Shown here piece after piece: positions 1 through 19,999 of a DNA stretch of 43,053 nucleotides. Position numbers and translations under genes: made by a program. The stretch comes from a virus (taxonomy: Duplodnaviria > Caudoviricetes). The number at the start of each line of letters is the position of its first letter. Position 1 is the stretch's first letter. Location of the stretch: positions 1 through 43,053 of the IMG/VR virus record IMGVR_UViG_3300048850_000008; one strand, 5' to 3'. Under the pieces are notes generated by a model, which did no database searches, was not told the origin of the DNA, and saw nothing but the letters and a program-made list of their open reading frames with translations.

Positions 1-50
1 CGTGTGCGTGCGCATTGCCCCGGCTGCCATGCGGTATGGGTTTCTTCCGG

Positions 51-127
51 CCGCCCTTAGCTCAGTTGGATAGAGCACTCGCCTTCTAAGCGAGCGGTCA
101 CACGTTCGAATCGTGTAGGGCGGGCCA
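51..127 (+). tRNA. tRNA-Arg, anticodon TCT (host gene, integration target)
   Basis: Acceptor stem CCGCCCT/AGGGCGG, D arm GCTCAGTTGGATAGAGC, anticodon arm CTCGC-CTTCTAA-GCGAG (TCT at 85-87), T loop TTCGAAT, encoded CCA end at 125-127. Confidence 0.97.
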
Positions 128-207
128 AGTTCCCTAGTAATCTCAAGCACTTACGCCGGATCGGCTGTCGTTGTATTCCCGCGACAAGTGCACTCAGGCC
201 ACTGCGG
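81..207 (+). repeat. 127-bp direct repeat, left copy (tRNA 3' half att core plus 80 bp phage arm)
   Basis: Identical to 42927-43053; identity starts in the anticodon stem. Confidence 0.95.
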
Positions 208-738
208 GTGTACTCAGTACTGCACTCGGCACGGGCCGAAATTTGGTTCGATTTTCCGCGGGGGTAGCGCCCCTCGCGCCCGACCCAGTTTCCCCCGTAG
301 GGGTGCCTCGGCCTGTGCCCCGCGAAATCAGCCCGCCACGGGCACCATGGGCCCTCCCGCTACCCTGGCTCATCCCTGCCGCTGATCGCCTCTCCTGCGC
401 CGTCCTGGCGCGATCCTGGGGCCATTGGCGCACTCGTACTGCACTCACATCCTGCCCGGCATGGGAAATCCCTAGGCAACACGGGGCATTCAGCCCGATG
501 AGCGCCCGCCATGCACGCAAGTGTTCACCCTGGGCGCACCAGGAAGGGCCAGGAGGCGCTATCGGGTATGGTGGCTATGCTGGCCTGGGCTGCACGCTGA
601 TCGCCTACTGTGAGCGATCCTGGCGCGTTTCTGGGTCATTCATGAGCTACGCGACGTATTGATCGTAGCTGGCGCTGGGAAATCGTGGATTTGATTGGGT
701 AGGAATGGGCGCGCATGCGTGCGGGCATCTATTTCAAA

Positions 739-789
739 CAATCTTCGCTGTAAAAGCCCTGCCGGCAATCTTCGCTGTAAACGCCTGCC
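739..789 (+). repeat. Tandem direct repeat CAATCTTCGCTGTAAA x2, 27-bp period
   Basis: Exact 16-mers at 739-754 and 766-781, each followed within a few bases by CCTGCC. Confidence 0.85.
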
Positions 790-815
790 TTCCCTGAGGA
801 TTCCACCTGCCGCAT

Positions 816-840
816 GAATTGGCACCCACTACGACACACA
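816..840 (+). promoter_or_regulatory. Phage RNA polymerase promoter, copy 1
   Basis: GAATTGGCACCCACTACGACACA; the 15-bp core GGCACCCACTACGAC recurs in three other intergenic regions; the CACTA block resembles T7 TAATACGACTCACTATA. Confidence 0.8.
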
Positions 841-1286
841 CAGAGCACATGTATCTGTTGCCGCACCCGAAGGATGCCAGGATTCCCTAGTACCCAGGAC
901 ACCACACACAGTCCACACACCACGCTGCTATCCACACAGGCACCCAGCACACACACACCCAGGGCAGACACACATCCTTGCATGTACCTACCCAGGAATG
1001 ACACACACCTACACACCAGGGTAGAGCAGGGAGTGACAGAACGGATGCACCCTGCCGGAACGACAGTACAGCCCATAGCACGTACTGGGCAGATACAGCA
1101 CAAAGCATGTATCAGGAAGCATCCCGCGTGCGCCCAGGGAATAGCACGATGAGAGGCGAAGTAATGCCGCTGTGCACTGCGTAACAAGGCAGGTGCTGGG
1201 GAGATCATGCTGCGAAGTCTCTAGGTAATCTGTTGATGTGGAGGAGCCGAAGGGTTGACGTGCTGATACATCCAAGAACAAAGTGC

Positions 1287-1315
1287 TTGACAAGGTGTAT
1301 CGACATGCGTATAGT
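1287..1315 (+). promoter_or_regulatory. Host sigma70-type early promoter
   Basis: TTGACA (1287-1292), 17-bp spacer, TATAGT (1310-1315), upstream of the early genes. Confidence 0.85.
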
Positions 1316-1531
1316 TCAACCCATCGCAGCAACAAACGGCCTAGCCTAAAGGGCAGCCAGGAGCAGCGATAACGCAATACCCGGATGTACACCCAGGCGT
1401 AAGGCCAGGGGACACGGAAGGGGATTGCAAGGTGTTAGGTGACAAGCGCACCGGACCTTGTGCAAGCGGCCAGGGGCTACAACCCTTCGGATACTTCCCA
1501 CAAGATGCAGTACAGCAGTACCCAGCAGGAC

Positions 1532-1544
1532 CGCTCTTTAACAA
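1532..1544 (+). promoter_or_regulatory. boxA antitermination element
   Basis: CGCTCTTTAACAA matches the rrn/lambdoid boxA consensus and lies about 210 nt into the early leader. Confidence 0.8.
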
Positions 1545-1554
1545 TTCGCAGCGT

Positions 1555-1931
1555 GAAAGCACTAGGCGAGAAATTGCTAGGTGCGAGTAACCGTATGAGT
1601 TCAGCGCTCACGAGATAGCGGGTAGTGCCGCAAGCTGGTTCCATGGGCTATCCACGCCTACGGATCAAGGACCCGGGATAGACCGGGTGGATACTATGGC
1701 CTTGGCAACAGGGCCATGGGATAGATGCATTGCGGCATGTGGATGGACCCGGGGTGAGTCGCGGGAACCAGGTTAGCGCCTGGGACAACGTGACAAGAGA
1801 TACCCTGGCACATGCACGCTCTGGCCGCTAAGGCGATACGCCGGCAAACGCTGGGCCGCTTGTGCGCTAACACGGCGCTCCGGCTTGCTGATACGGCGCT
1901 GGTTAACCGTAACGCAGTGCATCTATCCCAT
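1555..1931 (+). ncRNA. Candidate structured leader or non-coding RNA
   Basis: No credible ORF; 19-bp long-range stem 1716-1734/1913-1931 encloses nested helices; upstream hairpins have GAAA and GCAA tetraloops. Confidence 0.5.
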
Positions 1932-1991
1932 CGCATCAGATGGACGGCATAACGGCCGATTAGAACACACCATCATAACCGAGAGGCACAC

Positions 1992-2132
1992 ATGAAAACC
2001 ACGCTCTACGCCGCCGTCCTGGTGGCCCTGGCCGCCGCGCTGGGCGGTTGCGTTATCAATCCTGTTAAGATTGAGCACGCAACTGTAACCATTCATGCGG
2101 ACAAGGTAGCAGCCGCACAACCCAGCAAGTAG
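1992..2132 (+). CDS. Small lipoprotein, 46 aa (not in ORF track)
   Basis: GAGAGG RBS; MKTTLYAAVLVALAAALGGC-VINPVKIEHATVTIHADKVAAAQPSK has a basic N-terminus, hydrophobic core and LGGC lipobox. Confidence 0.8.
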   Translation: MKTTLYAAVLVALAAALGGCVINPVKIEHATVTIHADKVAAAQPSK

Positions 2133-2136
2133 GACA

Positions 2137-2331
2137 ATGGCAACCCGCCGCGAACTCGTAGATACGCTATGCCGCCTTACCGACATGGAACGGGAGGATG
2201 CGCTTTGGCTTATCTGTGCGATGGTGGCGGATGGCCGGATGATCCCGCTTGACAACAACGCCCAGGAATACGAGTTGCGGCAGGGCATCCGTTTGGAGGA
2301 TGTTGCCGCCGAGTACATGGCGCGAGAATAG
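2137..2331 (+). CDS. Hypothetical early protein, 64 aa
   Basis: AGGA RBS, follows the previous stop closely, plausible composition. Confidence 0.7.
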   Translation: MATRRELVDTLCRLTDMEREDALWLICAMVADGRMIPLDNNAQEYELRQGIRLEDVAAEYMARE

Positions 2332-2407
2332 CGCCACGCAGTACACACCGAAGTTCCCAACAGGTCCGTAAGGGGCCGCAATCACGCACTCGCAAGGAGC
2401 AAGCGCC

Positions 2408-2656
2408 ATGCACCATCCTGCCGTACCCAATTCCCAAACAATCCTAAGCGACGATGAATTCCAGGCCCTGACCGTGTACAAGGACCAGCACGGGCGGCAA
2501 TGGAAGGATCGCCTTGTACAGGCATGGCTAAATGACTGGCGCGAACAGTGGGGCATCCTGCGGACCGTCCGCAACACCCACGGCATACAGGAAGCGCTCG
2601 CTGCATTCGACAAGCGGGTGCAGGCGGGGAAAGCTGCCGCTAAGGTGGCGGCATGA
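2408..2656 (+). CDS. Hypothetical early protein, 82 aa
   Basis: AAGGAG RBS; stop overlaps next ATG. Confidence 0.8.
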   Translation: MHHPAVPNSQTILSDDEFQALTVYKDQHGRQWKDRLVQAWLNDWREQWGILRTVRNTHGIQEALAAFDKRVQAGKAAAKVAA

Positions 2657-2832
2657 GCCCGGCCGACTTTCGCGAGCAGACGCGCGGCGGCCAGTGCTAC
2701 CTGTTGCCGCTCGTCGGCAAGGGATGGACAGACACGGAGCGCCGCGCACTTGTCGACGACTTCCGCGCACGCGGCTATTTCGTCCGCGTCATCTCGCCCG
2801 GCCGCATCGCCATAACCGAGCTATCCACCTAA
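2653..2832 (+). CDS. Hypothetical early protein, 59 aa (not in ORF track)
   Basis: ATGA overlap with upstream gene; MSPADFREQTRGGQCYLLPLVGKGWTDTERRALVDDFRARGYFVRVISPGRIAITELST. Confidence 0.7.
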   Translation: MSPADFREQTRGGQCYLLPLVGKGWTDTERRALVDDFRARGYFVRVISPGRIAITELST

Positions 2833-2969
2833 CCCCGCAACACCCGGCCGCCCAGGCGGCCCACTAAGCAAGCGCATTCACGCAGTGCGCTTCCTTCGTG
2901 CCCGTATACCCGCACGAAAACCGGCCCGTAAGGGGTCGCTAACCCTAGCCTCGTAAGGAGCGCCACGCC

Positions 2970-3458
2970 ATGACAACCCATAAGGAATACCCGCTTTTCA
3001 CCCAGGAGAACGCCGATAAATGCCCCACCGCCCGTTTTGTGGCCGGGGTATCGCGCTGGCTCTGCGAATGCAAAGAGCCGAGCAAATGCGAGGGCGTAAT
3101 GGCGGCGCGTGGTGTGTATTCGCGCAAGGCGTACATGAATGACCCCTCACACCTTACCGGCGCACCTGCCGCCGACCGTCGCGCGGCGCACCGCAGGTAC
3201 TACGGGCAATTCGTTAGTGAAGCCACGATACGCCGAGTAGTGCAGGCCATAGGCGCGGATGCGCTGCGCAGGTCCACGGACCAGCATTTAAACGACATTC
3301 CGCTTGAGCAGTGGGACAGGCTCACTCCCCATTTGCCGCTTGCTAGGCGATTCGAGGCGGCCGGCGATTACGCCACGCTCGCCGGTCTGGTTTGCGTGGC
3401 AAAGGAAGCCGCCCGGCAATGGTTGGAGCAGCAACAGGGCGGCGGGGCGCAGTCATGA
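2970..3458 (+). CDS. Hypothetical early protein, 162 aa
   Basis: AAGGAG RBS; Cys-containing N-terminal part; globular-looking C-terminal part. Confidence 0.8.
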   Translation: MTTHKEYPLFTQENADKCPTARFVAGVSRWLCECKEPSKCEGVMAARGVYSRKAYMNDPSHLTGAPAADRRAAHRRYYGQFVSEATIRRVVQAIGADALRRSTDQHLNDIPLEQWDRLTPHLPLARRFEAAGDYATLAGLVCVAKEAARQWLEQQQGGGAQS

Positions 3459-3513
3459 GCCGCCCGAACACCCTGGATCATCCCGACCATGCAACCCGGG
3501 GCGGGGGTGAACA

Positions 3514-3699
3514 ATGACCCCGAAGCTTGAACCGCACTGCGGTAGCTGGGTGGTTACCCGCCTGATCGACGGTACAGTGATAGGGGAGTTCTTCACTAAG
3601 TCGATTGTCGAGCAATTCAACCCCAACACCTGCCGGGTTGAAACGGCCGCGCAGTACCTAGGGCGTGTCAACAGAGCTATCCGGGAGGTAGCGTCATGA
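3514..3699 (+). CDS. Hypothetical early protein, 61 aa
   Basis: GGGGGTG RBS; ATGA overlap with next gene. Confidence 0.75.
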   Translation: MTPKLEPHCGSWVVTRLIDGTVIGEFFTKSIVEQFNPNTCRVETAAQYLGRVNRAIREVAS

Positions 3700-3935
3700 G
3701 CCCCCGCCCGGACTCCCAAACTGCCCGCCTAGCGGCTCTACAGATCGGCCAGGGCTATCTGTTGCCTACGGCCCTGGACCGCTACGCGAAGGACATGCGG
3801 CAAGCAATTCCGCCGCGCACCCGCCGCCCGGCAGAGCTGGCCGGGATGGAATTCGCCGCCACCCTGTTCACCTGCGTATCCGCACGCAAGGCAGGGGATG
3901 TGCGGTACGCAATCTGGATCGAGCGGGTAGCCTGA
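3696..3935 (+). CDS. Hypothetical early protein, 79 aa (basic, possibly nucleic-acid binding)
   Basis: GGAGG RBS, ATGA coupling; function is a guess from size and charge. Confidence 0.75.
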   Translation: MSPRPDSQTARLAALQIGQGYLLPTALDRYAKDMRQAIPPRTRRPAELAGMEFAATLFTCVSARKAGDVRYAIWIERVA

Positions 3936-4151
3936 CGCGCTGCGGTAGAGCACCTTTACAGTAACTGAATTCCTGTAGCGGAGCCCGGCGCGGCCGGGTT
4001 ATGCTCCGCACCCAGGGAACCAGGGCGAAGCGCTGCGGGGCGCTTCCCCCGGGTTTCTTGCCCGCGCCATGAGGCGAACATAAAACGAGTCGGCGATACC
4101 TTTTATCCCGCCGCTCTGCAAAGGCGCACGAGCGCCACAAGGACTTATAAG

Positions 4152-4418
4152 ATGCAATTGCGACTAGTACAACCGAATGCGAAGGACCCGGTTATCCTCG
4201 AATACCGGGACCGCACGCGGATACTGTTTAGCTATGAGGCACCCGTGGCCGCTTTCGTCCCGGGTCGCGGATTCATTTGCACCAACATCGACGTATCCAA
4301 CACCACGGCCACGCGCATCCACAAGTTCGTTGGCAATGCGCCGTGCGAGCAAGTGGAGCAAGCCGAGATTTTCGGACTTATCACCCGCCATGTCCCGCCC
4401 ACTCGGGACCAGATTTAA
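4152..4418 (+). CDS. Hypothetical early protein, 88 aa
   Basis: AAGGA RBS; LFSYEAPVA and SNTT segments look like a small phage protein. Confidence 0.75.
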   Translation: MQLRLVQPNAKDPVILEYRDRTRILFSYEAPVAAFVPGRGFICTNIDVSNTTATRIHKFVGNAPCEQVEQAEIFGLITRHVPPTRDQI

Positions 4419-4830
4419 CCCGCTAGGCAGTTGAGAACGGCAGCTATAGGACCAGTCACGGACTGACCTATCACGGCCGCTTTTGGCCGCATCTAAGGCG
4501 CGTCCGCGCCGACTTCCCTCAATACTGTGCATCGGCGCATTGCTTCGGCATCGCGCCTGTTTGTGCTGCCTACTGCCTCAATCAATGACGATACAACAGC
4601 GCAACAAAGCGCGGGCGGATAACCGCGACCGTGCGGAGGGTGTACGCCTCCAGATGAAACGTAGCACTAGCGGGGCGCACTCCGCATGTTGGTTCCGCCG
4701 CACCGGGTATTACGCGGCGCTGGGCAGTACGTAAGGGAAGCACACTTTCACGGCCTCGCACCATGCGGGGCCTTGCAGTTCCTCGCAGTCCAACTGGCGG
4801 TATTACGACGCCGAAAACACCGGAGCTTTC

Positions 4831-4992
4831 ATGAGTTCGATCCGATCCGCACGTCCCCAAGCACGTCAACCCGAGCGCTGCCGCAATGTGGCCGCGTTTG
4901 CCAAATCGCTGCTGTCCCGGCGCTCCGCGCACGCGATAAGCACGCATCAGGTCCGTTCAGCGTTTGCCCGCGCAGTGGGGTACATCGCATGA
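4831..4992 (+). CDS. Hypothetical basic protein, 53 aa (not in ORF track)
   Basis: GGAG RBS; TGA overlaps the ATG at 4989. Confidence 0.55.
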   Translation: MSSIRSARPQARQPERCRNVAAFAKSLLSRRSAHAISTHQVRSAFARAVGYIA

Positions 4993-5195
4993 GCTTTCTG
5001 ACCGCCCAACTCCCCCCGCAGATTGACCCCTTCATCACCTACACGTACGACAAGAGCGGCCGCATCATCGCGGCGCATTGCACGACGGACCTAGCGGAAA
5101 CGCTCCCGACAACCCGTCGCGTGCGGGCAATCGTCGCCATGCGTCAAGCGCAGCGGGCCATCGACCACGCCCGCCTTGAATCCCTCTTTCAGTAG
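4989..5195 (+). CDS. Hypothetical protein, 68 aa
   Basis: C-terminal part of ORF 4686..5195, starting MSFLTAQ; ATGA coupling. Confidence 0.65.
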   Translation: MSFLTAQLPPQIDPFITYTYDKSGRIIAAHCTTDLAETLPTTRRVRAIVAMRQAQRAIDHARLESLFQ

Positions 5196-5203
5196 GAGCA
5201 GAC

Positions 5204-5434
5204 ATGCGAATTTTCGGCATCGTGATTACCACCGCGCGCCGCTTGGACGAGGCGAAGTCCTATGAGCGCGATGCGGGGAGGCGAGAAGGCAGCGAAGCGG
5301 GCAGGCAAGCCCAGCTTCTTGATGTGTGGTCCGCCAGCCGGCACGAGTACCCAGGCACAGCGCGCACCATCCAAGCCTTCCTGCGTGCCAACTTCGGCTA
5401 CTTCCGTTCCCAGGAGCAGACATGGACCCTATAG
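5204..5434 (+). CDS. Hypothetical protein, 76 aa
   Basis: AGGAG RBS. Confidence 0.75.
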   Translation: MRIFGIVITTARRLDEAKSYERDAGRREGSEAGRQAQLLDVWSASRHEYPGTARTIQAFLRANFGYFRSQEQTWTL

Positions 5435-5706
5435 ATTACGCGCTGGCCTGCGCAGCACCCAACGCCCAGCAAAACGAGTCGTACGTACGGCTGCTGGTCG
5501 ACGAGGTGCGCCGCCTGCGCGTTGAATTGCGCGATGCTGACGCGGACGCCGAGGAGTATCTGCGCCAGTTGAAGCTGGCGATGCACGCGAACATGCGGAA
5601 GCGCAAGCAGTTGAAGCTACAGGATGCGCAGTATCGGAGCCTGCCTGTCCCGCGCGCCGTGCGCATCATGGATCATGCCGTCTCGGATGGGCTGGGCGAT
5701 GAGTAG
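5422..5706 (+). CDS. Hypothetical coiled-coil protein, 94 aa
   Basis: AGGAG RBS before MDPIDY; heptad-like VDEVRRLRVELRDA. Confidence 0.75.
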   Translation: MDPIDYALACAAPNAQQNESYVRLLVDEVRRLRVELRDADADAEEYLRQLKLAMHANMRKRKQLKLQDAQYRSLPVPRAVRIMDHAVSDGLGDE

Positions 5707-6493
5707 CGCTGCCACCGAGGGACAACCGAAAGGCCCGAGCGGATCGGCGGATCGACATTTCTACGAGGCGGGCTATCGCAAGGGGCGTGTGGATGCCGCC
5801 AGCGAGGCCGGGGCGGTGCCGGTGGCCCACGCCGAGGATTGGAAACCCGGATTCACTGCCGCTTACTTTGACGCTTCAGTCGTCCCGGCAGGCACGGGCG
5901 TCTACGCCGCCCCGCCCGCACCTGTAGAGGCCGGAGCAGAAACAGCGATAGCCGCTATCCAGTTCGCCCTAAAGGCCGATGAGGGCATGGCGTGGTTGCG
6001 GTGCTGGAACGAGGGCGATTTCGATGCGTGCCGTAGGGAGTGGCCTGAAACGCCAGAGGAATGCTTTATCGGCGCGGACCCCTTGCACCCCGATACGCGC
6101 GCCACGCTGAACGCCGCCCCATCGGATGCGCTAGACGCGCCGGAATGTAATGGGTCACACGACGCTGGGCAGATTGGGGCCGGCGATCCTGAATGTACGG
6201 TGTGCACTGGATCGGCTGCGCAGGGCGACGAGCAAGAACCTATACCGGTTCGATACTACAAAGCCGGGGGCGTGACATACGCAGTCTACGGCAGTAGTTC
6301 CATCGACTACGTAGAGCACCTACACGCCGCCCTGTCTCGCCAGCCCGATACCGCCGCAATCCTGTACCTGCTGGACCGCGCCGAACAGGTGGCCGAGGAC
6401 GGCTACCAGACTACCGGCGACGAGTACGAAATGCTCCGGCGCGCTGCTGCCGCAGTCCGCGCTTCCCTGCAAGTCCAACCTGAAGGAACTTGA
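5699..6493 (+). CDS. Mosaic hypothetical protein, 264 aa
   Basis: Starts MSSAATEG overlapping the previous stop; short modules joined by Ala/Pro linkers. Confidence 0.7.
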   Translation: MSSAATEGQPKGPSGSADRHFYEAGYRKGRVDAASEAGAVPVAHAEDWKPGFTAAYFDASVVPAGTGVYAAPPAPVEAGAETAIAAIQFALKADEGMAWLRCWNEGDFDACRREWPETPEECFIGADPLHPDTRATLNAAPSDALDAPECNGSHDAGQIGAGDPECTVCTGSAAQGDEQEPIPVRYYKAGGVTYAVYGSSSIDYVEHLHAALSRQPDTAAILYLLDRAEQVAEDGYQTTGDEYEMLRRAAAAVRASLQVQPEGT

Positions 6494-6759
6494 TGACGCC
6501 TGCCGCAGTAACCGCATTCTCCCTTGCGTACGCAGTTGCCATGCTGAAGCACCATAAGGACGGCACAAAGCCGCCGCCTGCGGTTGACCACGTAGCGAAG
6601 GCAGTACAAGCCGCAGCGTGCATGGCCCGCATCAACCGCGTGCCGGCCAGTAACCCCGGGCATCCCCGCCACCTCCGCAAGGGTGCGTACAGCGCGCGGC
6701 AGTGGCGCATCTGCACCCGCAAGTCGCACGACCTCCGCATGTTCGGCGCATCCGCCTAA
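6493..6759 (+). CDS. Hypothetical basic protein, 88 aa
   Basis: AAGGA RBS; TGATG overlap. Confidence 0.65.
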   Translation: MTPAAVTAFSLAYAVAMLKHHKDGTKPPPAVDHVAKAVQAAACMARINRVPASNPGHPRHLRKGAYSARQWRICTRKSHDLRMFGASA

Positions 6760-6788
6760 ACCCAGCAGTCCAACCAACCGAGGGAACT

Positions 6789-7061
6789 ATGTCCTTGACA
6801 ATCCTGGTGGCGAAGGCCACACGCCGTATCCACTCCCATGCAGTGAAGCTGCACACCAAGGCCCTGCGCGCCCGCGTCATGGCCGCTGGCCGCAACACCA
6901 AGCGCGCCGAGGAAGACGCGCGGGTGGCCGCCGCTATCGCCTTGGAGACGCGCAAGTTCGCCCAGGCGAAAGCGGTGGCGTTCCATAAAGCCCGCGTGTC
7001 GGAAGCGGACATTCACACGGCCGCCGAGGCCGAGGCCAATCTGATCGGAGGGAAGCTGTAA
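6789..7061 (+). CDS. Hypothetical helical protein, 90 aa
   Basis: GAGGG RBS before MSLTILV; TAATG overlap with next gene. Confidence 0.75.
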   Translation: MSLTILVAKATRRIHSHAVKLHTKALRARVMAAGRNTKRAEEDARVAAAIALETRKFAQAKAVAFHKARVSEADIHTAAEAEANLIGGKL

Positions 7062-7450
7062 TGACGCCGTTCAAAGTGGGTGACAAGGTGCGGTGCGTCA
7101 ATAAGTGGCACACGGTGGAGGAGATGAATACCATCTACACCGTTGCGAATGTTAAGACCCGCTTCCCGGACACGTACATTCAGCTTAAGGAGCTGCTGCA
7201 CAGTGCACCCGTGCACAGCTTTGACGCCACCCGCTACGAGTTGGCCGCCCCTCAGCCCCCTGCCGAGTTCTTCTACCGCGACCTGAACAGTGCGCCGGCC
7301 AACGAGCACGGCCCGTACGACACGGAAGAACTCGCCATCCAGGCCATCAAGGACTTGGGTATCGACGGCAACGTGTACGAGGTGGTGGAGCGCAAGCGCA
7401 TCGCAACCGTCAAGGTCACGCGCAGCGTGGACGTGGAGGTGACGCGATGA
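7061..7450 (+). CDS. Hypothetical protein, 129 aa, paralogue A
   Basis: GGAGG RBS; FKVGDKVRCV N-terminus; similar to the next gene. Confidence 0.85.
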   Translation: MTPFKVGDKVRCVNKWHTVEEMNTIYTVANVKTRFPDTYIQLKELLHSAPVHSFDATRYELAAPQPPAEFFYRDLNSAPANEHGPYDTEELAIQAIKDLGIDGNVYEVVERKRIATVKVTRSVDVEVTR

Positions 7451-7836
7451 GCGAGCCCAAGTTCCAGAAGGGAAACAAGGTGCGCTGCGTGTCGGTCGGG
7501 CACAGCACTCGGCTTGTGGTCGGGCGTGTGTACACCGTAGAAAAAGCTATAACCGCCGACGACGTTGACTACGTGGTACTCGCGGAGCTGTTGGCGGAAG
7601 TCCCGGACCACAACTACTACGCGGATAAGTTCGAGATGGTGCAGGAGGAGAAGCCGCGCGAGTTCCGGTACCTGCTCTCGGACGGTACGCCCGGCATGAA
7701 GTGGTTCGCCAGCGTAGACGAGGCCGAGGACTACCTACTCCTGCATGCGGCCGACGAGACAGCCATCCCCATCGTGGAAATCGTTCCCGTCAAGACCGTG
7801 AAGGTGCGCCGCGTGGTCGAGGAGGTGACACGATGA
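7447..7836 (+). CDS. Hypothetical protein, 129 aa, paralogue B
   Basis: GGAGGT RBS; FQKGNKVRCV N-terminus; ends EVTR like paralogue A. Confidence 0.85.
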   Translation: MSEPKFQKGNKVRCVSVGHSTRLVVGRVYTVEKAITADDVDYVVLAELLAEVPDHNYYADKFEMVQEEKPREFRYLLSDGTPGMKWFASVDEAEDYLLLHAADETAIPIVEIVPVKTVKVRRVVEEVTR

Positions 7837-8120
7837 ACGTTTCCCCCACGCAGGCGGAGTCCTTCCGCGCCATGCTGCCCAAGATGCCGGCCGTGAAGCA
7901 GCGCGTGCTGGATGTGCTCGCAGAGTACGCCGGCCCGCTGTCCCGCGAGTCCATCGCCCTGCTGAGTGGCATGCGCCTCGCCACCGTGTGCTCCGCCGTC
8001 CACGGTCTGATGAAGGACGGAGCGCTGGCGGATGCCGGCACCACGTACAACCACGAGACGCGGCGCAACGTGCAGGTGGTGAAGCTGGCCGGCGCGAAGC
8101 TCACGCCGTCGATCAACTAG
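7833..8120 (+). CDS. Winged helix-turn-helix DNA-binding protein, 95 aa
   Basis: RVLDVL-PLSRESIALLSGMRLATVCSAVHGLMKDGAL pattern followed by a beta wing; GGAGGT RBS. Confidence 0.8.
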   Translation: MNVSPTQAESFRAMLPKMPAVKQRVLDVLAEYAGPLSRESIALLSGMRLATVCSAVHGLMKDGALADAGTTYNHETRRNVQVVKLAGAKLTPSIN

Positions 8121-8128
8121 GAAACCAC

Positions 8129-8308
8129 ATGCTGAAAACTGCCATCGGCCTCTACATCGCGTACATCCTTCTCCTGGTCGCCATCATCGTCGGCTGGATC
8201 GGCAACCTCATCCACGCCTTCCACACAACCGGAACCACGGACCTGATCCTTACCCTCGTCGGCGTGTTCGCGCCGCCGCTTGGCGCAATCAAGTTCTTCT
8301 TCTTCTGA
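8129..8308 (+). CDS. Small membrane protein, 59 aa, two predicted TM helices
   Basis: AGGA RBS; hydrophobic runs IGLYIAYILLLVAIIVGWIG and LILTLVGVFAPPLGAI. Confidence 0.75.
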   Translation: MLKTAIGLYIAYILLLVAIIVGWIGNLIHAFHTTGTTDLILTLVGVFAPPLGAIKFFFF

Positions 8309-9115
8309 TTGCTACCTGCCCGTGATTGGCTTGCGGCGGCCCAGGCCCTGCCGGAAGGCGGGCGGGGTCGGATCAATCACACATGCGGGGAAGGGCGCAC
8401 GCTCCTCATCAAGCACGAGCGGGACAGGTGGTCCTCCTACTGCTTCCGCTGCGACGAGCCGGGCATCGAGCAGAAGCCCACGGAATCGTGGCAGGAGCGC
8501 CTGGAACGGCTCACCCGGGAGCAGGGTATGGACGCGGCCTTGCGCCGCTCTGTGGCCCTTCCTGGCCCGCCTGAGTTCGACGTACAGCAGTGGCCCGCCG
8601 CGGCCAGGGTGTGGCTGTACAAGGCCGGCATCGGACGGCCGGAGATAGAGGAGCTGGGCGCGTACTGGCATCGGCCCACGGGCAGGCTAGTGCTGCCCAT
8701 CTTCGAGGGCGAGCAGCTTATCTACTGGCAGGCCCGCGACGTGAGCTGGACCCGCGCGTCCAAGCGCGCCAAGTACGTAAACCCCGACGTAGACAAGCAG
8801 CGCCTCGTCGCTAAGTACGGACGGGGTAACCCGCTGGTGCTTACCGAGGATGTACTGAGCGCGTTCCGGGTGGGGCAAGTGACCGAGGCGTGGTCCCTCC
8901 TGGGCACCAGCCTGAGCGATCCGGTAGCCGCAAGCATCAAGACATCGCGCCCCGTGCGGGTATGGCTGGACCCCGATCCAGCAGGCCGCAAGGCGGCGCG
9001 CACCATTACCCAACAACTTCGCAGCCAGGGGCTGGACGCGCAGCGCATTGAGGCGCGCGCCGATCCGAAGCTGCTATCACGCCGGGAGATTGAACATCAC
9101 CTCCGCCATTCGTAA
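8309..9115 (+). CDS. DNA primase (Zn-binding plus TOPRIM)
   Basis: HTCG...YCFRC zinc site, YWQAR, KY, LTEDVLSA and WLDPD TOPRIM motifs; TTG start. Confidence 0.9.
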   Translation: MLPARDWLAAAQALPEGGRGRINHTCGEGRTLLIKHERDRWSSYCFRCDEPGIEQKPTESWQERLERLTREQGMDAALRRSVALPGPPEFDVQQWPAAARVWLYKAGIGRPEIEELGAYWHRPTGRLVLPIFEGEQLIYWQARDVSWTRASKRAKYVNPDVDKQRLVAKYGRGNPLVLTEDVLSAFRVGQVTEAWSLLGTSLSDPVAASIKTSRPVRVWLDPDPAGRKAARTITQQLRSQGLDAQRIEARADPKLLSRREIEHHLRHS

Positions 9116-9341
9116 GTTCTACGAAAAATGCCCCTGCTGCGGCGGGGATAAGGAACGCTCGCCAACGCCCGAGGAGCTGGCCCGCGAAGTAATAAGCCGT
9201 GAAATCGGTGCGGCCCTGTCCGGGCGTGATGTCTGCTCTCTGATACCTGGATGGCCCGGGACGTTGGCTATCGCGCGCCGTGCGTTAGCCGCAATGAAAG
9301 CGGCTGGCTTGCAGCTAACCAAGGAGAACGCCTCATCCTAG
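9090..9341 (+). CDS. Hypothetical protein with CPCC motif, about 83 aa
   Basis: Fills the primase-helicase gap; probable TTG start, position uncertain. Confidence 0.5.
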   Translation: MNITSAIRKFYEKCPCCGGDKERSPTPEELAREVISREIGAALSGRDVCSLIPGWPGTLAIARRALAAMKAAGLQLTKENASS

Positions 9342-10606
9342 AAACCACAGTCCTGCAACTGCTCAGGTTCCGTGACCGCTATGAGAAGTTGGCAGGCTCA
9401 GTACCAAAGGCTGCGCTGGACATCAAGACGCAGACAATCCTGGGCGACTTCGGGAAGTTCTTCCGAGCCAACCCGGAATGCAACGAGATACAGTCCGGCC
9501 CCTTCACCCTTTGGTTCAATCTCGCGCACCCGAAACTCACGGACGACCAACGCACACTCTATGCGCGCGCCCTCAAGCAGATAGACAAAGCCGTAGACCC
9601 CAGTATTGAGGCCGGCCTGGTGGAGCGGCTGGTGGAAGCGTCCACGGCCGCCGCCGTCACCGAGATGTTGGAGCAGTACCGGGATGGTGAGGTGTCGTTG
9701 ACCACGGCGCTGAACGCGCTGAACGAGCAGCACCGTAACCAGATCAATCGCAAGGTGCGCGTGCCGGAAGTCACGGACGACATCAGCGAGTTGCTGCGCG
9801 AGGACGTAAACAACATCGGCCTGCACTGGCGCACCCAGGCGGTGTCCTGCGCTGTGCGTGCGCTGCAAGAGGGGGACTTCATTGTCCTGGCCGCACGCCC
9901 GGATGCCGGAAAGACGACATGGCTGGCGTCCGAGCTGTCCTTCATGGCCCCGCAGGTGGACGCACTGTACCCCGGTCAGCATCGCAGCATCATCTGGCTG
10001 AACAACGAGGGGCCAGGGCGGCGCATCAAGCGCAGGCTGTATCAGGCGGCGCTGGGCCTGAAGGTGTCCGAGATGGCGGAGATGGACAAGCGGGGAGAGC
10101 TGAAACCCGCGTACGCCAAGGCCGTAGGCCGCAGCGACATCATCCGCGTGTTCGACATTCACGACTTCTGGTCGCACGAGGTGGAGGACATCATCGCCAA
10201 CATCCCGTCCGCCCTGGTGGTGTTCGACATGATCGACAACATCAAGTTCGGCGGCGAGATTGCCAACGGCGGCCAGCGCACGGACCAAGCCCTGGAGTCC
10301 ATGTACCAATGGGCGCGCGTCATGGGTGTGAAGTACGGCACCCGCTGCATCGCCACGTCCCAGGTGTCCGCTGACGGGGAGGGCTTGCCCTATCCCAACA
10401 TGAGCATGCTCAAGGACAGCAAGACGGGCAAGCAGGGCGCGGCCGACGCCATTGGCATCCTCGGCAAAAGCGGCTCGATTGAATTGCAGAACACGCGATT
10501 CATCGGCTTCCCGAAAAACAAACTGCACATAGAGGGCGGCCCGAAGGACCCACAGCGAGAGGTGGTGTTCGACGCGGAGCGCGCCCGAGTGAGGGACCCA
10601 CAGTGA
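9335..10606 (+). CDS. DnaB-like (SF4) replicative helicase
   Basis: Walker A ARPDAGKTT, NNEG, Walker B VVFD, ATSQ, KTGKQGAAD. Start uncertain: ATC at 9335 after AAGGAG, or ATG at 9251. Confidence 0.92.
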   Translation: MLETTVLQLLRFRDRYEKLAGSVPKAALDIKTQTILGDFGKFFRANPECNEIQSGPFTLWFNLAHPKLTDDQRTLYARALKQIDKAVDPSIEAGLVERLVEASTAAAVTEMLEQYRDGEVSLTTALNALNEQHRNQINRKVRVPEVTDDISELLREDVNNIGLHWRTQAVSCAVRALQEGDFIVLAARPDAGKTTWLASELSFMAPQVDALYPGQHRSIIWLNNEGPGRRIKRRLYQAALGLKVSEMAEMDKRGELKPAYAKAVGRSDIIRVFDIHDFWSHEVEDIIANIPSALVVFDMIDNIKFGGEIANGGQRTDQALESMYQWARVMGVKYGTRCIATSQVSADGEGLPYPNMSMLKDSKTGKQGAADAIGILGKSGSIELQNTRFIGFPKNKLHIEGGPKDPQREVVFDAERARVRDPQ

Positions 10607-10842
10607 AATTCTGCAAGGACTGCAAGCATTACCGGCGCAGCCAGTTCGGGCGAATGACCCACCACATTATTCCGTTGCACGGCTGCGCGCGGCGGTACAG
10701 CGAAATAACAGTGCAGTGTCCGGTGACTGGCGACACGCAGATAAAAGGGGTGGGGCACCTCCGGGACGCTGAGGTCGAGCGCACTGCGGGACTAAACCAC
10801 TGCGGCCCCGAAGCCGTCTTCTATGAGGCGGCCTGGGCTTGA
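10603..10842 (+). CDS. Small Cys-rich protein, 79 aa
   Basis: FCKDCKHY...C...CGPEA putative zinc ligands; overlaps both neighbours by 4 nt. Confidence 0.7.
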   Translation: MKFCKDCKHYRRSQFGRMTHHIIPLHGCARRYSEITVQCPVTGDTQIKGVGHLRDAEVERTAGLNHCGPEAVFYEAAWA

Positions 10843-13310
10843 GCGGCTACCCGTACGTCGTATGGGACTTGGAAACCAGCACAAAGACTGAGTACAAGCG
10901 CAAGGCCAATCCGTTCAGCGCAGAGAACTACATCGTGTGCCAGGGATGGCAGCGCGGCACGCTGGGCGCGGCAATGGCCGGGGGCATCACACCGGCCGAC
11001 TACTTCCCGGAAGGGCTGGACCGCGAGGAGCGCATTGCCGCGTGCAAGAAGCTGCCCAAGGACTGGTTCACCAAGCACTTGCAGAACACCAAGCTGCTTG
11101 TGGGGCAGAACATCAAGTTCGACCTGCTGTACGCCATCGCCAATCCCAACAGCAACCCCGAGGCCAACCTGTTCGCCTGGATGGAGTTCATCAACCGCGG
11201 CGGCATGATTTGGGACATCCAGCTCGCTGAGTACATGCTGGCCGGCATGGAGCAATCCAGCCACATGCTGGCGCTGGACGAGATAGCGCCCAGCTACGGC
11301 GGGAACGTGAAACTTGACGAGGTAAAAACGCTTTGGGAAGCCGGGGTCGACACCATCGACATTCCCGAGGACCTGCTGATGCGCTACCTCGCGGGACGCG
11401 AAGGCTCGGATGGCTTCGAGGAAGGTGACATCGGGAACACCGAGCGTGTGTTCCGCGGCCAGTGGGACAAGGCCAAGCAGTCCGGCCAGCTGCGCAGCAT
11501 CCTGCTGGGCATGGGCGCGCTGGTGTTCACCATCGAGTGCGAGCGCAACGGCATGGCGGTGGACAAGCAGCTGGGCCTGGAGCTGGCCGAGAAGCTGGCG
11601 GCCAAGCTGGCCGAGGCATCGTTGCAGTTGGAGAAGTACCTGCCCGAGGGCTTGCCCTTCGAGTTCAACTGGAACAGCCGCTTCCACAAGTCCGCGCTCA
11701 TCTTCGGCGGCAAGGTCAAGTACGACGCGCCGGCCCCTGTGCTGGACGACGATGGGAACCTGACGTACTACCAGAAGAAGGAGCTGCACTACTTGCTCGT
11801 AGACGGTACCACGACGCCGTGCGCACCCGGCGAGCCGTGCTTCGGATACGACGGGGGGCGCAGCGCCGACGATTACTCGCGCTTTGCCGGGGGCAAGAAC
11901 AAGGGCGAGCTCAAGACCAAGCAGGTTACGGTGCCCGACCTGGAGCGCGGCCACAAGACGCGCATAGAGCCGCATTACTACACGTTCGAGGGCTTCACCA
12001 AGCCGGACCCGACCTGGGAGAGCAAGAGCGACCCAGGCGTGTACAGCACCGCCAGCGAAATCATGGAGGAGCTTACGTCCAACACGGACGTGCCGTTCCT
12101 CAAGACGCTGGGCGAAGTGGTGAAGATGACCAAGGACCTCGGCACCTACTTCATCACGACCGATGAGGACGGCAACCAGAAGGGCATGCTCACCCTGGTG
12201 CAGCTGGACGGCATCATCCACCACATGCTCAATCACACGAGCACGGTGACCGCCCGCCTGTCCTCCAGCAACCCGAATCTCCAGAACATCCCGAAGGGCC
12301 AGAAGTCCGACGCGAAGACCCTGTTCAAGTCCCGGTGGGGCGAGGACGGCGTAATCATCCAGTCCGATTTCAGCTCCCTGGAGGTGTACGTCCAGGCCAT
12401 CCTGACCCGGGCCGCGCAGCTTATCGCTGACTTGCGCGCTGGCGTGGACATGCACTGCATGCGCCTCGCCGCCAAGGAAGGCATGCAGTACGACGAGGTT
12501 CTGCAACTCTGCAAGGGCGAGGGCGTGGACCCGGAGGTGCAATCCGAATGGGACTACAAGCGCACAGGGGCGAAGGTGTTCTCGTTCCAGCGGGCGTACG
12601 GCGCGGGCACCAAGAAGATTGCCAAGTCCACGGGCATGTCCGAGGAGGACACGCAGGCCCTGGCCGACGCGGAGAACGCCCGCTACCCGGAGATTGAGCC
12701 GTACTTCGAGCAGAAGGCGATCGACATCCGCAAGTCCCGCATCCCCACCGGCATGATCGTGCAGCACCCGGAGATACCCGGTCTGCAAATCCAGCTCGGC
12801 AAGGGGTACAGCGTGACGCCGGACGGCAAGCTGTACTGCTACCGCGAGCACCCGTCGCCCAAGTGGCTCATCGAGCGTGGCAAAGAGCGCGCCGGCTTCA
12901 TGCCCACGGAAATCAAGAACTACGAGGTGCAAGGCACTGGCGGGGAATTCGCCAAGGCCGCCATGTGGTTGTCCGTGCGTGCGTTCTACCACTACCGGAA
13001 CTTCGATGGGCTGGCCCTGCTGGTCAATCAGGTGCATGACGCCGAGTACGCCGACGCGCACAAGAAGGTCCGGGCCAAGGCCGCGGCTCTCCTGCACGTC
13101 TGCATGGAGGAGGCCAGCACTTTCATGGAGTGGTGGTTCAAGTGGGAGCTACCGCTGGGCGTGCCGTCCGACACGGTGTGGGGCAGCAGCATGGCCGAGG
13201 AAAGCAAGATTACTTCGGATGTATTCGAGCAGTGTGTAGACAAGCTGCGGCCCTGGGTCCGCAAGCGCTTCATCGGGAATCACGTCCCGACCTTTGAACA
13301 GTCCCTGTAG
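10839..13310 (+). CDS. Family A DNA polymerase with 3'-5' exonuclease
   Basis: WDLET, NIKFD, TARLSSSNPNLQNIP, DFSSLE (motif A), RTGAKVFSFQRAYG (motif B), NQVHD (motif C). Confidence 0.97.
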   Translation: MSGYPYVVWDLETSTKTEYKRKANPFSAENYIVCQGWQRGTLGAAMAGGITPADYFPEGLDREERIAACKKLPKDWFTKHLQNTKLLVGQNIKFDLLYAIANPNSNPEANLFAWMEFINRGGMIWDIQLAEYMLAGMEQSSHMLALDEIAPSYGGNVKLDEVKTLWEAGVDTIDIPEDLLMRYLAGREGSDGFEEGDIGNTERVFRGQWDKAKQSGQLRSILLGMGALVFTIECERNGMAVDKQLGLELAEKLAAKLAEASLQLEKYLPEGLPFEFNWNSRFHKSALIFGGKVKYDAPAPVLDDDGNLTYYQKKELHYLLVDGTTTPCAPGEPCFGYDGGRSADDYSRFAGGKNKGELKTKQVTVPDLERGHKTRIEPHYYTFEGFTKPDPTWESKSDPGVYSTASEIMEELTSNTDVPFLKTLGEVVKMTKDLGTYFITTDEDGNQKGMLTLVQLDGIIHHMLNHTSTVTARLSSSNPNLQNIPKGQKSDAKTLFKSRWGEDGVIIQSDFSSLEVYVQAILTRAAQLIADLRAGVDMHCMRLAAKEGMQYDEVLQLCKGEGVDPEVQSEWDYKRTGAKVFSFQRAYGAGTKKIAKSTGMSEEDTQALADAENARYPEIEPYFEQKAIDIRKSRIPTGMIVQHPEIPGLQIQLGKGYSVTPDGKLYCYREHPSPKWLIERGKERAGFMPTEIKNYEVQGTGGEFAKAAMWLSVRAFYHYRNFDGLALLVNQVHDAEYADAHKKVRAKAAALLHVCMEEASTFMEWWFKWELPLGVPSDTVWGSSMAEESKITSDVFEQCVDKLRPWVRKRFIGNHVPTFEQSL

Positions 13311-13325
13311 AGAGGATTAGAACGC

Positions 13326-14207
13326 ATGGCATTTAACATCAAGAACGCAATCAGCAAGGCCGCCAAGGGCGTAGACATGAACGTGGCGCAGAAGGGCGGC
13401 GGCACCTACACCCCGCCAGCTACCGGCGTGCCGGGCCTGCGCTTCGTGGCCTACGTAGAGCTTGGCCCGCAGAACGAAACGTACCAGGGCCAGGAGCGCG
13501 TGCGTGAGCAAGTCAAGCTGGTGTTCGAGCTGCACGGGAAGAAGTGGCCGCTGTCCGACAACGGCCAGCCGCAGCGCATCACCGTGAGCTTGGCTAAGTC
13601 GCTGAACGAGAAGGCCACGTTCTACAAGCTGTTCAAGGCGATGAACTACGACGGCAAGGCCAAGCACTTCGCGGAGCTGCTGGGCCAGGACTACGTAGGT
13701 ACGGTCTATCACTCGGTATGGAAGTCGGACCCCAACAAGGTCACGGCCACATTTAAGGACCCGAACACAGGCGTTATCAACATCCGCCCGCCATTTGTCG
13801 AGGACGAGGAAGGAGAGGCGCAACGCCGCAACGTGCCGCCAGCTATCAGCGAGCTGCGCCTGTTCCTGTGGGATGCGCCGGATGCGGACCAGTGGGCCAG
13901 CATCTTCATCGACGGCGAGTACGAGCCTGGCAAGTCCAAGAACGTATTCCAGAACGCGATCAAGGCCAGCCCTGCTTTTGAGGGCAGCCCCATCGAGGCG
14001 CTGCTGTTGGGCGCTACGGACGACGACGATGCGGATGACGTAGAGAAGGCCAAGGCAGAAGCCAAGGCCAAGAAGGCGGAGAAGGCCGCAGCCCCAAAGA
14101 AGACGACCAAGGCGGCCGAGAAGAAGCCGGAGCCCGCACCTGCTTCGGATGACGGCGGCGAGGATGATCCGCTGGCTGGCGTCGGCGAAGACGACATCCC
14201 CTTCTGA
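13326..14207 (+). CDS. Probable single-stranded DNA-binding protein
   Basis: Position after the polymerase; beta-rich core, Lys/Ala linker, acidic tail ending EDDIPF. Confidence 0.7.
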   Translation: MAFNIKNAISKAAKGVDMNVAQKGGGTYTPPATGVPGLRFVAYVELGPQNETYQGQERVREQVKLVFELHGKKWPLSDNGQPQRITVSLAKSLNEKATFYKLFKAMNYDGKAKHFAELLGQDYVGTVYHSVWKSDPNKVTATFKDPNTGVINIRPPFVEDEEGEAQRRNVPPAISELRLFLWDAPDADQWASIFIDGEYEPGKSKNVFQNAIKASPAFEGSPIEALLLGATDDDDADDVEKAKAEAKAKKAEKAAAPKKTTKAAEKKPEPAPASDDGGEDDPLAGVGEDDIPF

Positions 14208-15154
14208 TGACACAGCCCGAGTGGCTGCGTAAAGCAGCCGCGCGGGTAGCCGAGCAGATTCCTGACGCAACCCCGATGGACGATGTGGTCCCCGGTCGCA
14301 CCGTGATGGTGGACGGGGACTACCTATGCTACTTCGCCAGCGGGGGCGACGAGATGCGGGTGGACATCTCGCGGCGTGTATTCGTTGATCGGCTACACGC
14401 CGTCAGGGAGCTGACCGGCGCGGAGAAGGTGGAGCTGCACCTATCCGCCCGCGCCAGCACCAAGGGTGAGCGATACCTTATCGCCACCACACAGCCCTAC
14501 CAGGGCCACCGCCACGGCCGCAAGCCCAAGAATTGGGAAGCCGTGCGGGAGTTCGCGGAGACGGTTGACGAGGACCGCATGCGCGCCAAGCGCATCGAAT
14601 GGTGGGACCGAGAGGCGGACGACGGCCTAGCCGCCGCAACGCTATCGGCCCGCGATCCTGTGACCTCCTACGTGATTCACACCGCCGACAAAGACATGCG
14701 CATGCTGCCCGGGCTGCATCTTGCCTGGACCGACTACGCCCGCACCGAAGTACCGAAGGGGGCGTACGAGGTTATCGGCCCGTACGACGGCAAGGTGTAC
14801 GGCACAAAGTGGTTCTGGATGCAGATGCTCATGGGCGACACCGCCGACCACATACCCGGCTTGTGGAAGGTGGGTGAGGGCAAGGCCCTTAAGTGGCTTG
14901 CCGGCACAACCTGCAACGCCGAGGCGTACGAGGTGGTGACTGCCAAGTACCAGGAGTTCAAGGGCGAAACCTGGGCGGACTACTTCGTGGAGCAGGCCGA
15001 GCTGCTATGGCTGCGCAAGACCGCAGAGCCGCACGACTACATGCGCGTGCTTCCCAGCAACTACTCGCGCGACATCTACCACGCCACCGTGCGGATGAAA
15101 CGCAACATCAAGGAGAAGCGTGAAGCGCTTGACCGCCTCAATGCTCAAACCTAA
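14207..15154 (+). CDS. 5'-3' exonuclease (T7 gp6 / flap endonuclease family)
   Basis: VDGD, EADD, DKD and GDTADHIPG motifs. Confidence 0.93.
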   Translation: MTQPEWLRKAAARVAEQIPDATPMDDVVPGRTVMVDGDYLCYFASGGDEMRVDISRRVFVDRLHAVRELTGAEKVELHLSARASTKGERYLIATTQPYQGHRHGRKPKNWEAVREFAETVDEDRMRAKRIEWWDREADDGLAAATLSARDPVTSYVIHTADKDMRMLPGLHLAWTDYARTEVPKGAYEVIGPYDGKVYGTKWFWMQMLMGDTADHIPGLWKVGEGKALKWLAGTTCNAEAYEVVTAKYQEFKGETWADYFVEQAELLWLRKTAEPHDYMRVLPSNYSRDIYHATVRMKRNIKEKREALDRLNAQT

Positions 15155-15521
15155 GCGGGCGCAAATGGCGAAGGAGCAGCATGGACTGTGCCCCATCACC
15201 AAGCGCCCCCTGGGGGATGACATCGTTCTGGACCACTGCCACACAACCGGCATGATCCGCGCAGTACTGCCCCGATGGATCAACGCCATCCTGGGCCGCA
15301 TCGAGAATTGGTCCGCCCGCGCCGGCAAGGGCATAGACCAGATAGCGCTGCTCCGCGGCATCGCGGACTACATCGAGTTCCACCAGCGCTACCCCACCGG
15401 CATCCTGCATCCCACGCACCGCACCGAAGCGGAGAAGCGCGACCTGAAGAACAAGCGCGCCCGCGCAGCCCGCCAGAAGGCCAACATAGAAAAGCGGCGT
15501 GCCGCGAAGGAATCCGAATGA
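15120..15521 (+). CDS. Endonuclease VII-like resolvase
   Basis: Q.GLCPI...VLDHCHTTGMIRAVL...N..LG. Confidence 0.88.
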   Translation: MKRLTASMLKPKRAQMAKEQHGLCPITKRPLGDDIVLDHCHTTGMIRAVLPRWINAILGRIENWSARAGKGIDQIALLRGIADYIEFHQRYPTGILHPTHRTEAEKRDLKNKRARAARQKANIEKRRAAKESE

Positions 15522-15781
15522 GCGTTCTCATGCGCAAGAAGGTTCATACGAACATTGGCGTAATCGAAGTATCAGTGCGGCCCGTCAACAGCTCCGGCTT
15601 TGACCTGCATCCCCGCGCTGTAGCGTACGAGTACGAGGCCAAGTTCAAGGAACTGCACACGATCATCCGGGTTGATGCGTTCCAAGCCGAGTATCACGGC
15701 GGCGGGGACGGTTTCCTGGAGCACATCGAGCGTGACCTTATGCAGCGCCCGGCGCGGTACGCCTTCGAGGTAGTGGGTTGA
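15518..15781 (+). CDS. Hypothetical protein, 87 aa
   Basis: AAGGA RBS before MSVLMRKK; overlaps both neighbours by 4 nt. Confidence 0.7.
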   Translation: MSVLMRKKVHTNIGVIEVSVRPVNSSGFDLHPRAVAYEYEAKFKELHTIIRVDAFQAEYHGGGDGFLEHIERDLMQRPARYAFEVVG

Positions 15782-16557: not shown

Positions 16558-16564
16558 GGAACCA

Positions 16565-17260: not shown

Positions 17261-17472
17261 GCAAAGAACGGCCGATAGAGAACGGCGTGGACCTGCTGGA
17301 AGATCAGGCCACGTACCGCGCGTACGAGGACCTCATCGTGATTGCACTGGACACGGGGAATGTGCCCGGCGCACGGCTCCGCTTCAAGGAAGCAGAGGAC
17401 CAGTTGTCGGAGTTCAGCCACGGCGAGCTGTACAGCATGGCGCTGAACGATTACGGGATTGACCTGCGTTGA
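17257..17472 (+). CDS. Hypothetical acidic protein, 71 aa
   Basis: AAGGA RBS, GTGA overlap, immediately upstream of the RNAP gene. Confidence 0.7.
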   Translation: MSKERPIENGVDLLEDQATYRAYEDLIVIALDTGNVPGARLRFKEAEDQLSEFSHGELYSMALNDYGIDLR

Positions 17473-17487
17473 GGACTCGGTAGCGCG

Positions 17488-19959: not shown

Positions 19960-19960
19960 G

Positions 19961-19985
19961 CATTCGGCACCCACTACGACGCAAG
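19961..19985 (+). promoter_or_regulatory. Phage RNAP promoter, copy 2 (start of late region)
   Basis: GGCACCCACTACGAC at 19966-19980, directly after the RNAP stop. Confidence 0.85.
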
Positions 19986-19999
19986 CTACGGAGAAACCC

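Follow-up and report, generated by a model that had tools for sequence, protein, structure and literature searches.

A gene-free early leader with a boxA, a covarying stem and an exchangeable insert in an integrase-bearing relative of T7

What does a long, structured and seemingly untranslated RNA do directly behind the early promoter of a phage that carries an integrase? The question is raised by positions 1555–1931 of a viral genome of 43,053 nt (the window, by which we mean the whole stretch of DNA analysed), where an earlier note had proposed an RNase III-released RNA acting in immunity, antitermination or anti-defence. The window is a phiKMV-type autographivirus with an integrase: its PHROG matches include primase, helicase, DNA polymerase, virion and lysis genes, a single-subunit RNA polymerase (17488–19959) and a convergent tyrosine integrase. 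The RNA polymerase is 58% identical to those of Burkholderia phage Bp-AMP1 and Ralstonia phage RS-PI-1, and the nearest helicases, which include Bordetella and Pusillimonas records, are 70–78% identical. Kin loci comprise L130 in Achromobacter deleyi, L129 in a Pusillimonas MAG, and L141, which shares its leader stretch with G201/L424. A tRNA lies at 51–124, and a 127-bp repeat (81–207, recurring at the window end) looks like an assembly overlap that closes a circle. Elsewhere in the window, direct repeats at 380–420/595–635 and 739–758/766–785, between attachment site and promoter, may serve the integrase as arm sites or act in packaging; a tandem pair of paralogous 129-aa ORFs (7061–7836) has kin in Burkholderia prophage loci; and the − strand has a strong folding signal (z −5.5) within the tail fibre gene, at 36601–36750.

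The unit of interest is wider than the range first marked, running from a promoter at 1287 to a start codon at 1992 and including a boxA. The promoter, of host σ70 type (TTGACA-17-TATAGT, 1287–1315, + strand), matches at 11 of 12 positions, is the sole such site in 1–6000 and is aligned in L130, L141, AMP1 and L121; it would place the transcription start near 1322. From the promoter to 1992, the first plausible start codon, ~670 nt are free of genes, and no intrinsic terminator was found on the + strand over 1322–1991. The ORFs of the region are short or antisense, and the antisense ones at 1341–1562 and 1694–1936 have no Pfam match, which bears out the view that there is no credible ORF. Similarly, just as no known family had been recognised at first sight, Rfam gave no match at gathering score or E < 0.9 in the window, nor any match in nine other loci scanned, tRNA aside. 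The leader ends at a Shine–Dalgarno-like site (1981–1986, + strand) and the first early ORF (1992–2132), which has a short match in L141. Its 46-aa product carries a lipoprotein-like signal, judged by what we take to be a lipobox motif, and Atlas gave only lipoprotein leads, below 0.9; going by sequence, this small lipoprotein-like product may have a role in superinfection exclusion.

Each motif listed in the earlier note was found at its position, and the + strand of 1555–1931 folds at −175.7 kcal/mol (z −5.2, with 0 of 100 shuffles as good), compared with z −1.7 and 6 of 100 for the − strand. The structure does not extend throughout: only 1735–1815 (z −3.9) and 1555–1715 (z −3.1) beat shuffles, whereas the short hairpins of 1816–1912 do not (z +0.7). 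The TATCCAC/GTGGATA halves are complementary but rarely pair (p ≤ 0.04), because each lies in another hairpin. Further, since 150-nt sliding windows reach z near −3 in the leader and likewise at several other places, it is the long stem and its covariation, rather than folding energy, that carry the signal. Other early gaps are also rich in hairpins (2362–2409, 2919–2970, 3960–4150 and 4430–4690), and L141 also has one of these cassettes, placed ahead of a ribosome site.

The long stem joins 1716–1734 to 1913–1931 on the + strand, 18 Watson–Crick pairs and one G-U, as originally described. First, in a scan of the + strand allowing at most 2 G-U pairs and arms within 340 nt, it is the sole uninterrupted stem of at least 16 bp in the whole 43 kb, the runner-up having 15 bp. 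Second, the folding ensemble retains 15 bp (1720–1734/1913–1927, p 0.99), and the stem forms with p 0.82–0.93 in 8 of 10 folding runs with varied context; when 1322–1995 is folded, its probability falls to 0.28 (37 °C) or 0.58 (25 °C) against a rival fold, and folding 1322–2140 restores 0.84. Third, the stem covaries across the window, L130, L121, AMP1 and RS-PI-1: 57 of 60 cells are paired, with double changes in 4 of 12 columns, counts that are biased to pairing because the anchors were picked on paired stems and that, with five related sequences, carry no formal significance. Slid controls gave 9–31 paired cells of 60, and arms crossed between phages formed 9.7 pairs versus 11.4. Adding the stems of Paku, L129 and L141, which are positional equivalents only, brings the count to 93 of 96. 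A pattern search for stems with short loops found 0, and a looser version of the stem motif, run over 90 loci, was uninformative, with hit rates per kb of 0.116 on the + strand and 0.096 on the − strand.

The early RNA of T7 is cut by RNase III (PMC5371410), and the sites described for the E. coli enzyme are helices of 11 bp in which a proximal box of four pairs is combined with a distal box of U-A/U-G; the preferred proximal box is G-C, A-U/U-A, A-U, A-U/U-A, and G-C at position 2 strongly blocks enzyme binding (PMC1540722). With the boxes placed by our own mapping on T7 R1.1, and by E. coli rules that may not be those of the host enzyme, the window stem has a helix of at least 11 bp (19 bp possible, 15 bp retained) and the U-A/U-G distal box, with the distal-box pairs of T7 R1.1. 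Proximal positions 3 and 4 match, position 1 is A-U and position 2 is the inhibitory G-C, so that the proximal box departs from the preferred one. On sequence grounds this is likely an RNase III-type stem, a predicted processing stem, with cuts predicted by the T7 R1.1 register at 1721|1722 in the 5′ arm and 1927|1928 in the 3′ arm. The predicted cut would leave the ribosome site as accessible as it was (0.55 uncut, 0.54 cut). Another early hairpin, at 2869–2891 (+ strand), has a 5-nt loop on a stem of this type and fits the T7 R1.1 boxes better than the main stem does.

The DNA occurs in two sequencing runs, X1, which may be its source, and X2, a soil RNA library. Six exact X2 contigs fall within 900–4600 (1177–1726, 2159–2541, 2623–2837, 2910–3134, 4059–4325 and 4328–4478), the longest being the 550 nt over 1177–1726 with zero mismatches; among the matches listed, 7 of the 8 X2 pieces in 1–20000 fall in the first 4.5 kb. 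These contigs fit early transcription, although they come from one study, give no ends, strand or level, and may reflect DNA carry-over. No X2 contig covers 1727–2158, and the first contig ends 5 nt beyond the predicted 5′ cut, to which we give no weight.

Upstream of the stem, parts of the leader are conserved among kin. The 5′ block (1322–1531, + strand) contains a small hairpin (1344–1354) and conserved stem flanks near 1424–1470; over 1278–1550 it is 71% identical to L141, where the alignment reaches 1550, with shorter matches in AMP1, L121 and RS-PI-1. A promoter-proximal motif with a 4-bp hairpin, altered on both sides in L141, is common to more phages than 1555–1931 is (window 1322–1360, L123 798–846, L130 3333–3370, L141 2065–2100, and also L129, L126 and L429). 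The Achromobacter prophage L130 aligns over 1268–1734 (63%, E 5e-27), ending exactly at the close of the stem 5′ arm. The stretch 1559–1719 (+ strand) forms six hairpins, at 1559–1584, 1597–1609, 1618–1631, 1640–1664, 1671–1688 and 1694–1719. The last four (1618–1719) recur in L130 in the same order with 63% identity, have p 0.81–1.0 when window and L130 are folded separately, and, in a consensus of the two sequences, have double changes at 7 of 45 pairs. Positions 1716–1717 belong both to the hairpin 1696–1717 and to the long stem, so only one of the two can be complete at once.

Within the stem, conservation ends. The insert (1735–1912, + strand) is lineage-specific, a four-tier rod (1735–1815) followed by weakly structured sequence (1816–1912), and the four-tier arm has no homologue in any relative, contrary to the idea of one conserved RNA of ~380 nt. 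In nine leaders, hand-picked by eye for showing the stem, the distal pairs enclose 6, 13, 68, 79, 96, 106, 106, 133 and 184 nt; the two shortest lengths belong to RS-PI-1 (6) and L130 (13), the longest (184) to the window, and those of 68–133 to six further leaders. The seven long inserts are unrelated in all 21 pairwise comparisons, every z being below 2.5. When the seven were folded, just two sequences fell below z −3, the L141 insert (z −3.2) and the rod half of the window insert (z −3.9); taken as a whole, the window insert reached −1.6. Searching with 1555–1960 returned just 22–44-nt matches in 20 of 401 genomes, by a method insensitive enough to miss a known homologue in G001, and 3 short matches in plasmids. 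A small peptide encoded in the insert was considered and set aside, as no ORF is conserved.

The inserts appear to change as units. Paku and L429 share 154 of 157 upstream and 106 of 108 downstream positions (98% for the latter), with an extra 27-nt hairpin in L429, and the inserts between these flanks are 48% identical versus 45% for shuffles. AMP1 and L121 have 84% upstream identity and differ in insert and downstream sequence. Exchange takes place at the distal box while the flanks stay near-identical, and the 8–9 pairs that close an insert come with it.

The leader also carries a boxA of rRNA-operon type, a predicted NusB/NusE loading site, at 1532–1545 (+ strand). Together with its upstream context (1503–1546), it found as best of six targets an Achromobacter rRNA-type leader in G001 (z 8.2); that this target is an rrn leader is our reading of a contig end, and it is likely that of a relative of the probable host. 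Among the matches listed, GenBank phage matches to 1200–2100 are all short, and 39 of the 40 listed (88 records) are T7-like Klebsiella phages matching 1507–1545. With at most one mismatch allowed, 18 of 90 distinct relatives (distinct loci with at least 6 kb upstream of the helicase) have a boxA, all three of the closest kin among them, and the other 72 have none; the phiKMV leader has none at 2 mismatches. Exact scans of viral contigs with the 14-mer gave chance matches only, with 0 of 119 loci in each aligned to the leader.

Because boxA is reported to be both required and by itself enough for the antitermination complex of E. coli rrn operons (PMC10250234), Nus loading without an N protein is plausible here. 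The window resembles the rrn type in having its boxA sequence 3′ of a host promoter, where NusB/NusE loading is predicted, and departs from it in spacing, boxA standing ~170–185 nt ahead of the stem arm in place of the 18–19 nt of the rrn boxC-helix. No N-like family was recognised among the early ORFs (PHROGs, Pfam), and the GAAA hairpin near boxA (1559–1584), in the position of a boxB candidate, has no counterpart kept in kin. Pairing of boxA with the first ribosome site was rejected, being seen in merely 2 of 10 leaders.

Our preferred reading, held with moderate confidence, is that of a gene-free early leader of the T7/lambda/rrn type, with boxA, an RNase III stem and a hypervariable insert, serving early transcription. 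In the mechanism that we propose, boxA would load host Nus factors without a phage N protein, and transcription by host polymerase would thereby continue in the direction of the phage polymerase gene, 16 kb downstream. Rho prefers unstructured RNA, and the hairpins may shield the leader from it. RNase III would cut at 1721|1722 and 1927|1928, probably slowly, giving the first mRNA its end and releasing two pieces, one of ~400 nt from the 5′ side and one of ~206 nt with the insert. Most simply, that insert would be a tolerated loop segment, exchanged by recombination under the sole demand that the stem stay closed. The same order of parts in T7, the lambda N leader and phiKMV counts for this reading, as do the loss of stem and insert in Bp-AMP3 and the mapped LUZ19 RNAs that end at 1704 in a stem arm of our fold; the inhibitory G-C, the unaltered access to the ribosome site, the distance from boxA to the stem, the relatives in which no such stem was identified, and the absence of boxA from phiKMV and most relatives count against it. 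Treating the insert as a by-product also leaves unexplained why inserts of 68–184 nt persist in 7 of 9 leaders. The earlier observation is confirmed and its interpretation partly supported: a structured, untranslated + strand RNA with an RNase III-type stem stands without the immunity role, and the link to antitermination holds through boxA, which the earlier note had not seen, and not through a put-like RNA.

Known systems share parts of this arrangement. The T7 early leader (promoters A1–A3, boxA, an RNase III site that we take to be R0.3, and gene 0.3) is of the same family, with the same part order and an identical 14-nt boxA between promoter A3 and gene 0.3 (T7 812–825). T7 R1.1 has the same four distal stem pairs as the window and a different proximal box, and from boxA to the start codon T7 has ~110 nt with short loops, whereas the window has 460 nt with six hairpins and a 178-nt insert. 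The stem of the lambda N leader is processed by RNase III, and in our fold of the lambda pL N leader boxA is likewise followed by a long stem, which encloses a branched insert, and the ribosome site comes last. Unlike lambda nutL, the window has no kin-conserved boxB directly after boxA and no recognised N-like gene, and its insert is hypervariable. Bacterial rrn leaders resemble the window in a boxA with host-like upstream context and in a long-range helix round a passenger RNA; in the window the passenger is not conserved and boxA is ~185 nt from the helix, compared with 18–19 nt in rrn (PMC10250234). Finally, phiKMV and LUZ19 have a ~470-nt gene-free structured leader with an insert-bearing stem, a long one around a branched insert in our fold of phiKMV, and gene-free RNAs are mapped in LUZ19 (PMC10914365); they differ in having no boxA and no sequence similarity to the window (z −1.2) and in being strictly lytic.

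Among relatives, five leaders from Anchaingvirus and three from Burkholderia prophages are gene-free and carry boxA together with hairpins, with no stem of the window type identified. In Bp-AMP3 (L447), a deletion corresponding to AMP1 (L123) 1238 to ~1745 has taken out the stem with its insert, the second hairpin and the greater part of ORF3, which is linked to cold sensitivity in AMP1. The annotated AMP1 ORF2 (AMP1_2, L123 1149–1367), which overlaps boxA and leader hairpins and is interrupted in L121, is probably not a gene. Separately, Burkholderia prophages with a CI-like gene (L174 6442–6990, L152 and L159) have their own conserved gene-free leader of ~550 nt after boxA, unrelated in sequence and ending in a terminator-like hairpin.

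The strongest alternative is that the cuts free stable trans-acting RNAs, the insert as a phage-specific effector (an anti-defence decoy or exclusion RNA) or the 5′ piece as a Nus sponge, with the stem as delivery stalk in the manner of the rRNA leader–trailer helix. It draws on the exchange of whole inserts with their own closing pairs, on the structural conservation of the 5′ hairpins, and on a 143-nt gene-free unit of LUZ19 whose 5′ end, at 1561, lacks any promoter motif (supplement of PMC10914365). The same supplement has the gene-free LUZ19 units that start at four host promoters end at 1704, where no terminator is predicted. In our folds both positions lie in 5′ arms of long stems, 1704 in the last stem before gene 1 and 1561 in an insert-bearing one. 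The 'promoter' P006 and 'terminator' T003 of LUZ19 (L455) fall in these arms (stems 1559–1673 and 1693–1742) and may on that modelling be processing sites, which is our reading; the authors call the ends start and termination sites (PMC10914365), and processing at 1561 is disfavoured because their method enriches primary 5′ ends. Against trans-acting RNAs, RS-PI-1 and L130 enclose merely 6 and 13 nt, Bp-AMP3 has no stem, the inserts have no sequence in common and no folding signal that holds across them, and Rfam matched nothing in the window or the nine other loci. We consider this alternative somewhat unlikely.

An improbable alternative makes the leader a lysogeny switch that stops early transcription, either through base-pairing between the nascent leader and a processed RNA, in the way that P4 CI pairs with seqA and seqC (PMC4825925), or through a rival fold that blocks boxA. 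Integration gives it some appeal: the closest kin (L130, L129 and L141) lie in bacterial contigs and have integrases 49–63% identical to that of the window, neither HTH_3 nor S24 has a match in the window, a rival fold (1821–1873/1432–1473) appears in some folding windows, and prophage maintenance of AMP1-like genomes is called unclear by the authors who describe them (PMC8917201). As with P4 CI, such an RNA would arise by processing of an early leader that is not translated; unlike P4 CI, the insert is not conserved, has no Rfam match and shows no significant pairing with the upstream leader. Duplexes between the window insert and its own upstream leader were no better than shuffles (11 of 25 and 10 of 25 as good), only Paku among seven phages, and at one window size, beat all 25 shuffles, and the longest perfect complement of the insert in the genome is 11 nt, within chance. 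The rival long-range fold, scored as a duplex, was not above shuffles and was rejected. Unrelated inserts in near-identical leaders mean that target and effector do not co-vary, and the + strand of 1322–1991 offers no intrinsic terminator at which to stop. Long gene-free leaders also occur in lytic phiKMV and LUZ19 and in kin with CI-like or HTH repressors, and kin with such a gene next to the promoter keep both boxA and long leader (the Pfam scores being below cut-off). The proposal of an immunity RNA filling a repressor gap is not supported, with no P4-CI-like self-pairing found and with long leaders shared by lytic and repressor-bearing kin. Cold repression in AMP1 maps to ORF3 and ORF14 (PMC8917201). 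A winged-helix candidate occupies the ORF14 position in the window, just before primase (7833–8120, HTH_IclR E 0.003, below cut-off), with homologues in L124 and L129 and none seen in L130 or L141; by its sequence, its product is a possible regulator.

It is very improbable that the stems stay unprocessed, masking untranslated RNA from Rho or nucleases or binding RNase III without cutting. Proximal position 2 holds the inhibitory G-C in 6 of 10 stems and the preferred pair in 4; against this, 7 of 10 retain the U-A/U-G distal box, wobble included, and the mapped LUZ19 ends (PMC10914365) lie inside stems of our folds. Barely credible is an RNA of HK022 put type, binding RNA polymerase directly for factor-free antitermination, which the position behind the early promoter and the lack of a recognised N-like gene would suit: put is a ~70-nt two-hairpin element, the canonical boxA points to Nus factors, and two HK022 early regions showed no similarity (z −0.5 and 1.8, in a record where put is not annotated).

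The preferred reading, an early leader serving transcription, adds to integrating relatives of T7, whose early control is described as unexplained (PMC8917201), a structured and covarying leader that had so far gone unannotated. We found no description of the stem-and-insert pattern in these phages in the open-licence literature, which covers older T7 and lambda work thinly. If the insert is merely a passenger, the finding is an enlarged leader of the T7/lambda type. The unexpected feature is the cassette-like exchange of inserts, and an unlikely but wider possibility is that, in Ampunavirus-like and related autographiviruses, the boxA/RNase III stalk at the start of the injected genome is a cassette slot for a 70–200-nt RNA released, untranslated, in the first minutes, with cassettes swapped like variable early genes and acting as anti-defence or exclusion RNAs. 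Natural swaps are at hand in Paku and L429, in AMP1 and L121, in the insert-less RS-PI-1 and L130, and in the stem-less Bp-AMP3, and they bear on whether by-products of phage leaders are functional RNAs.
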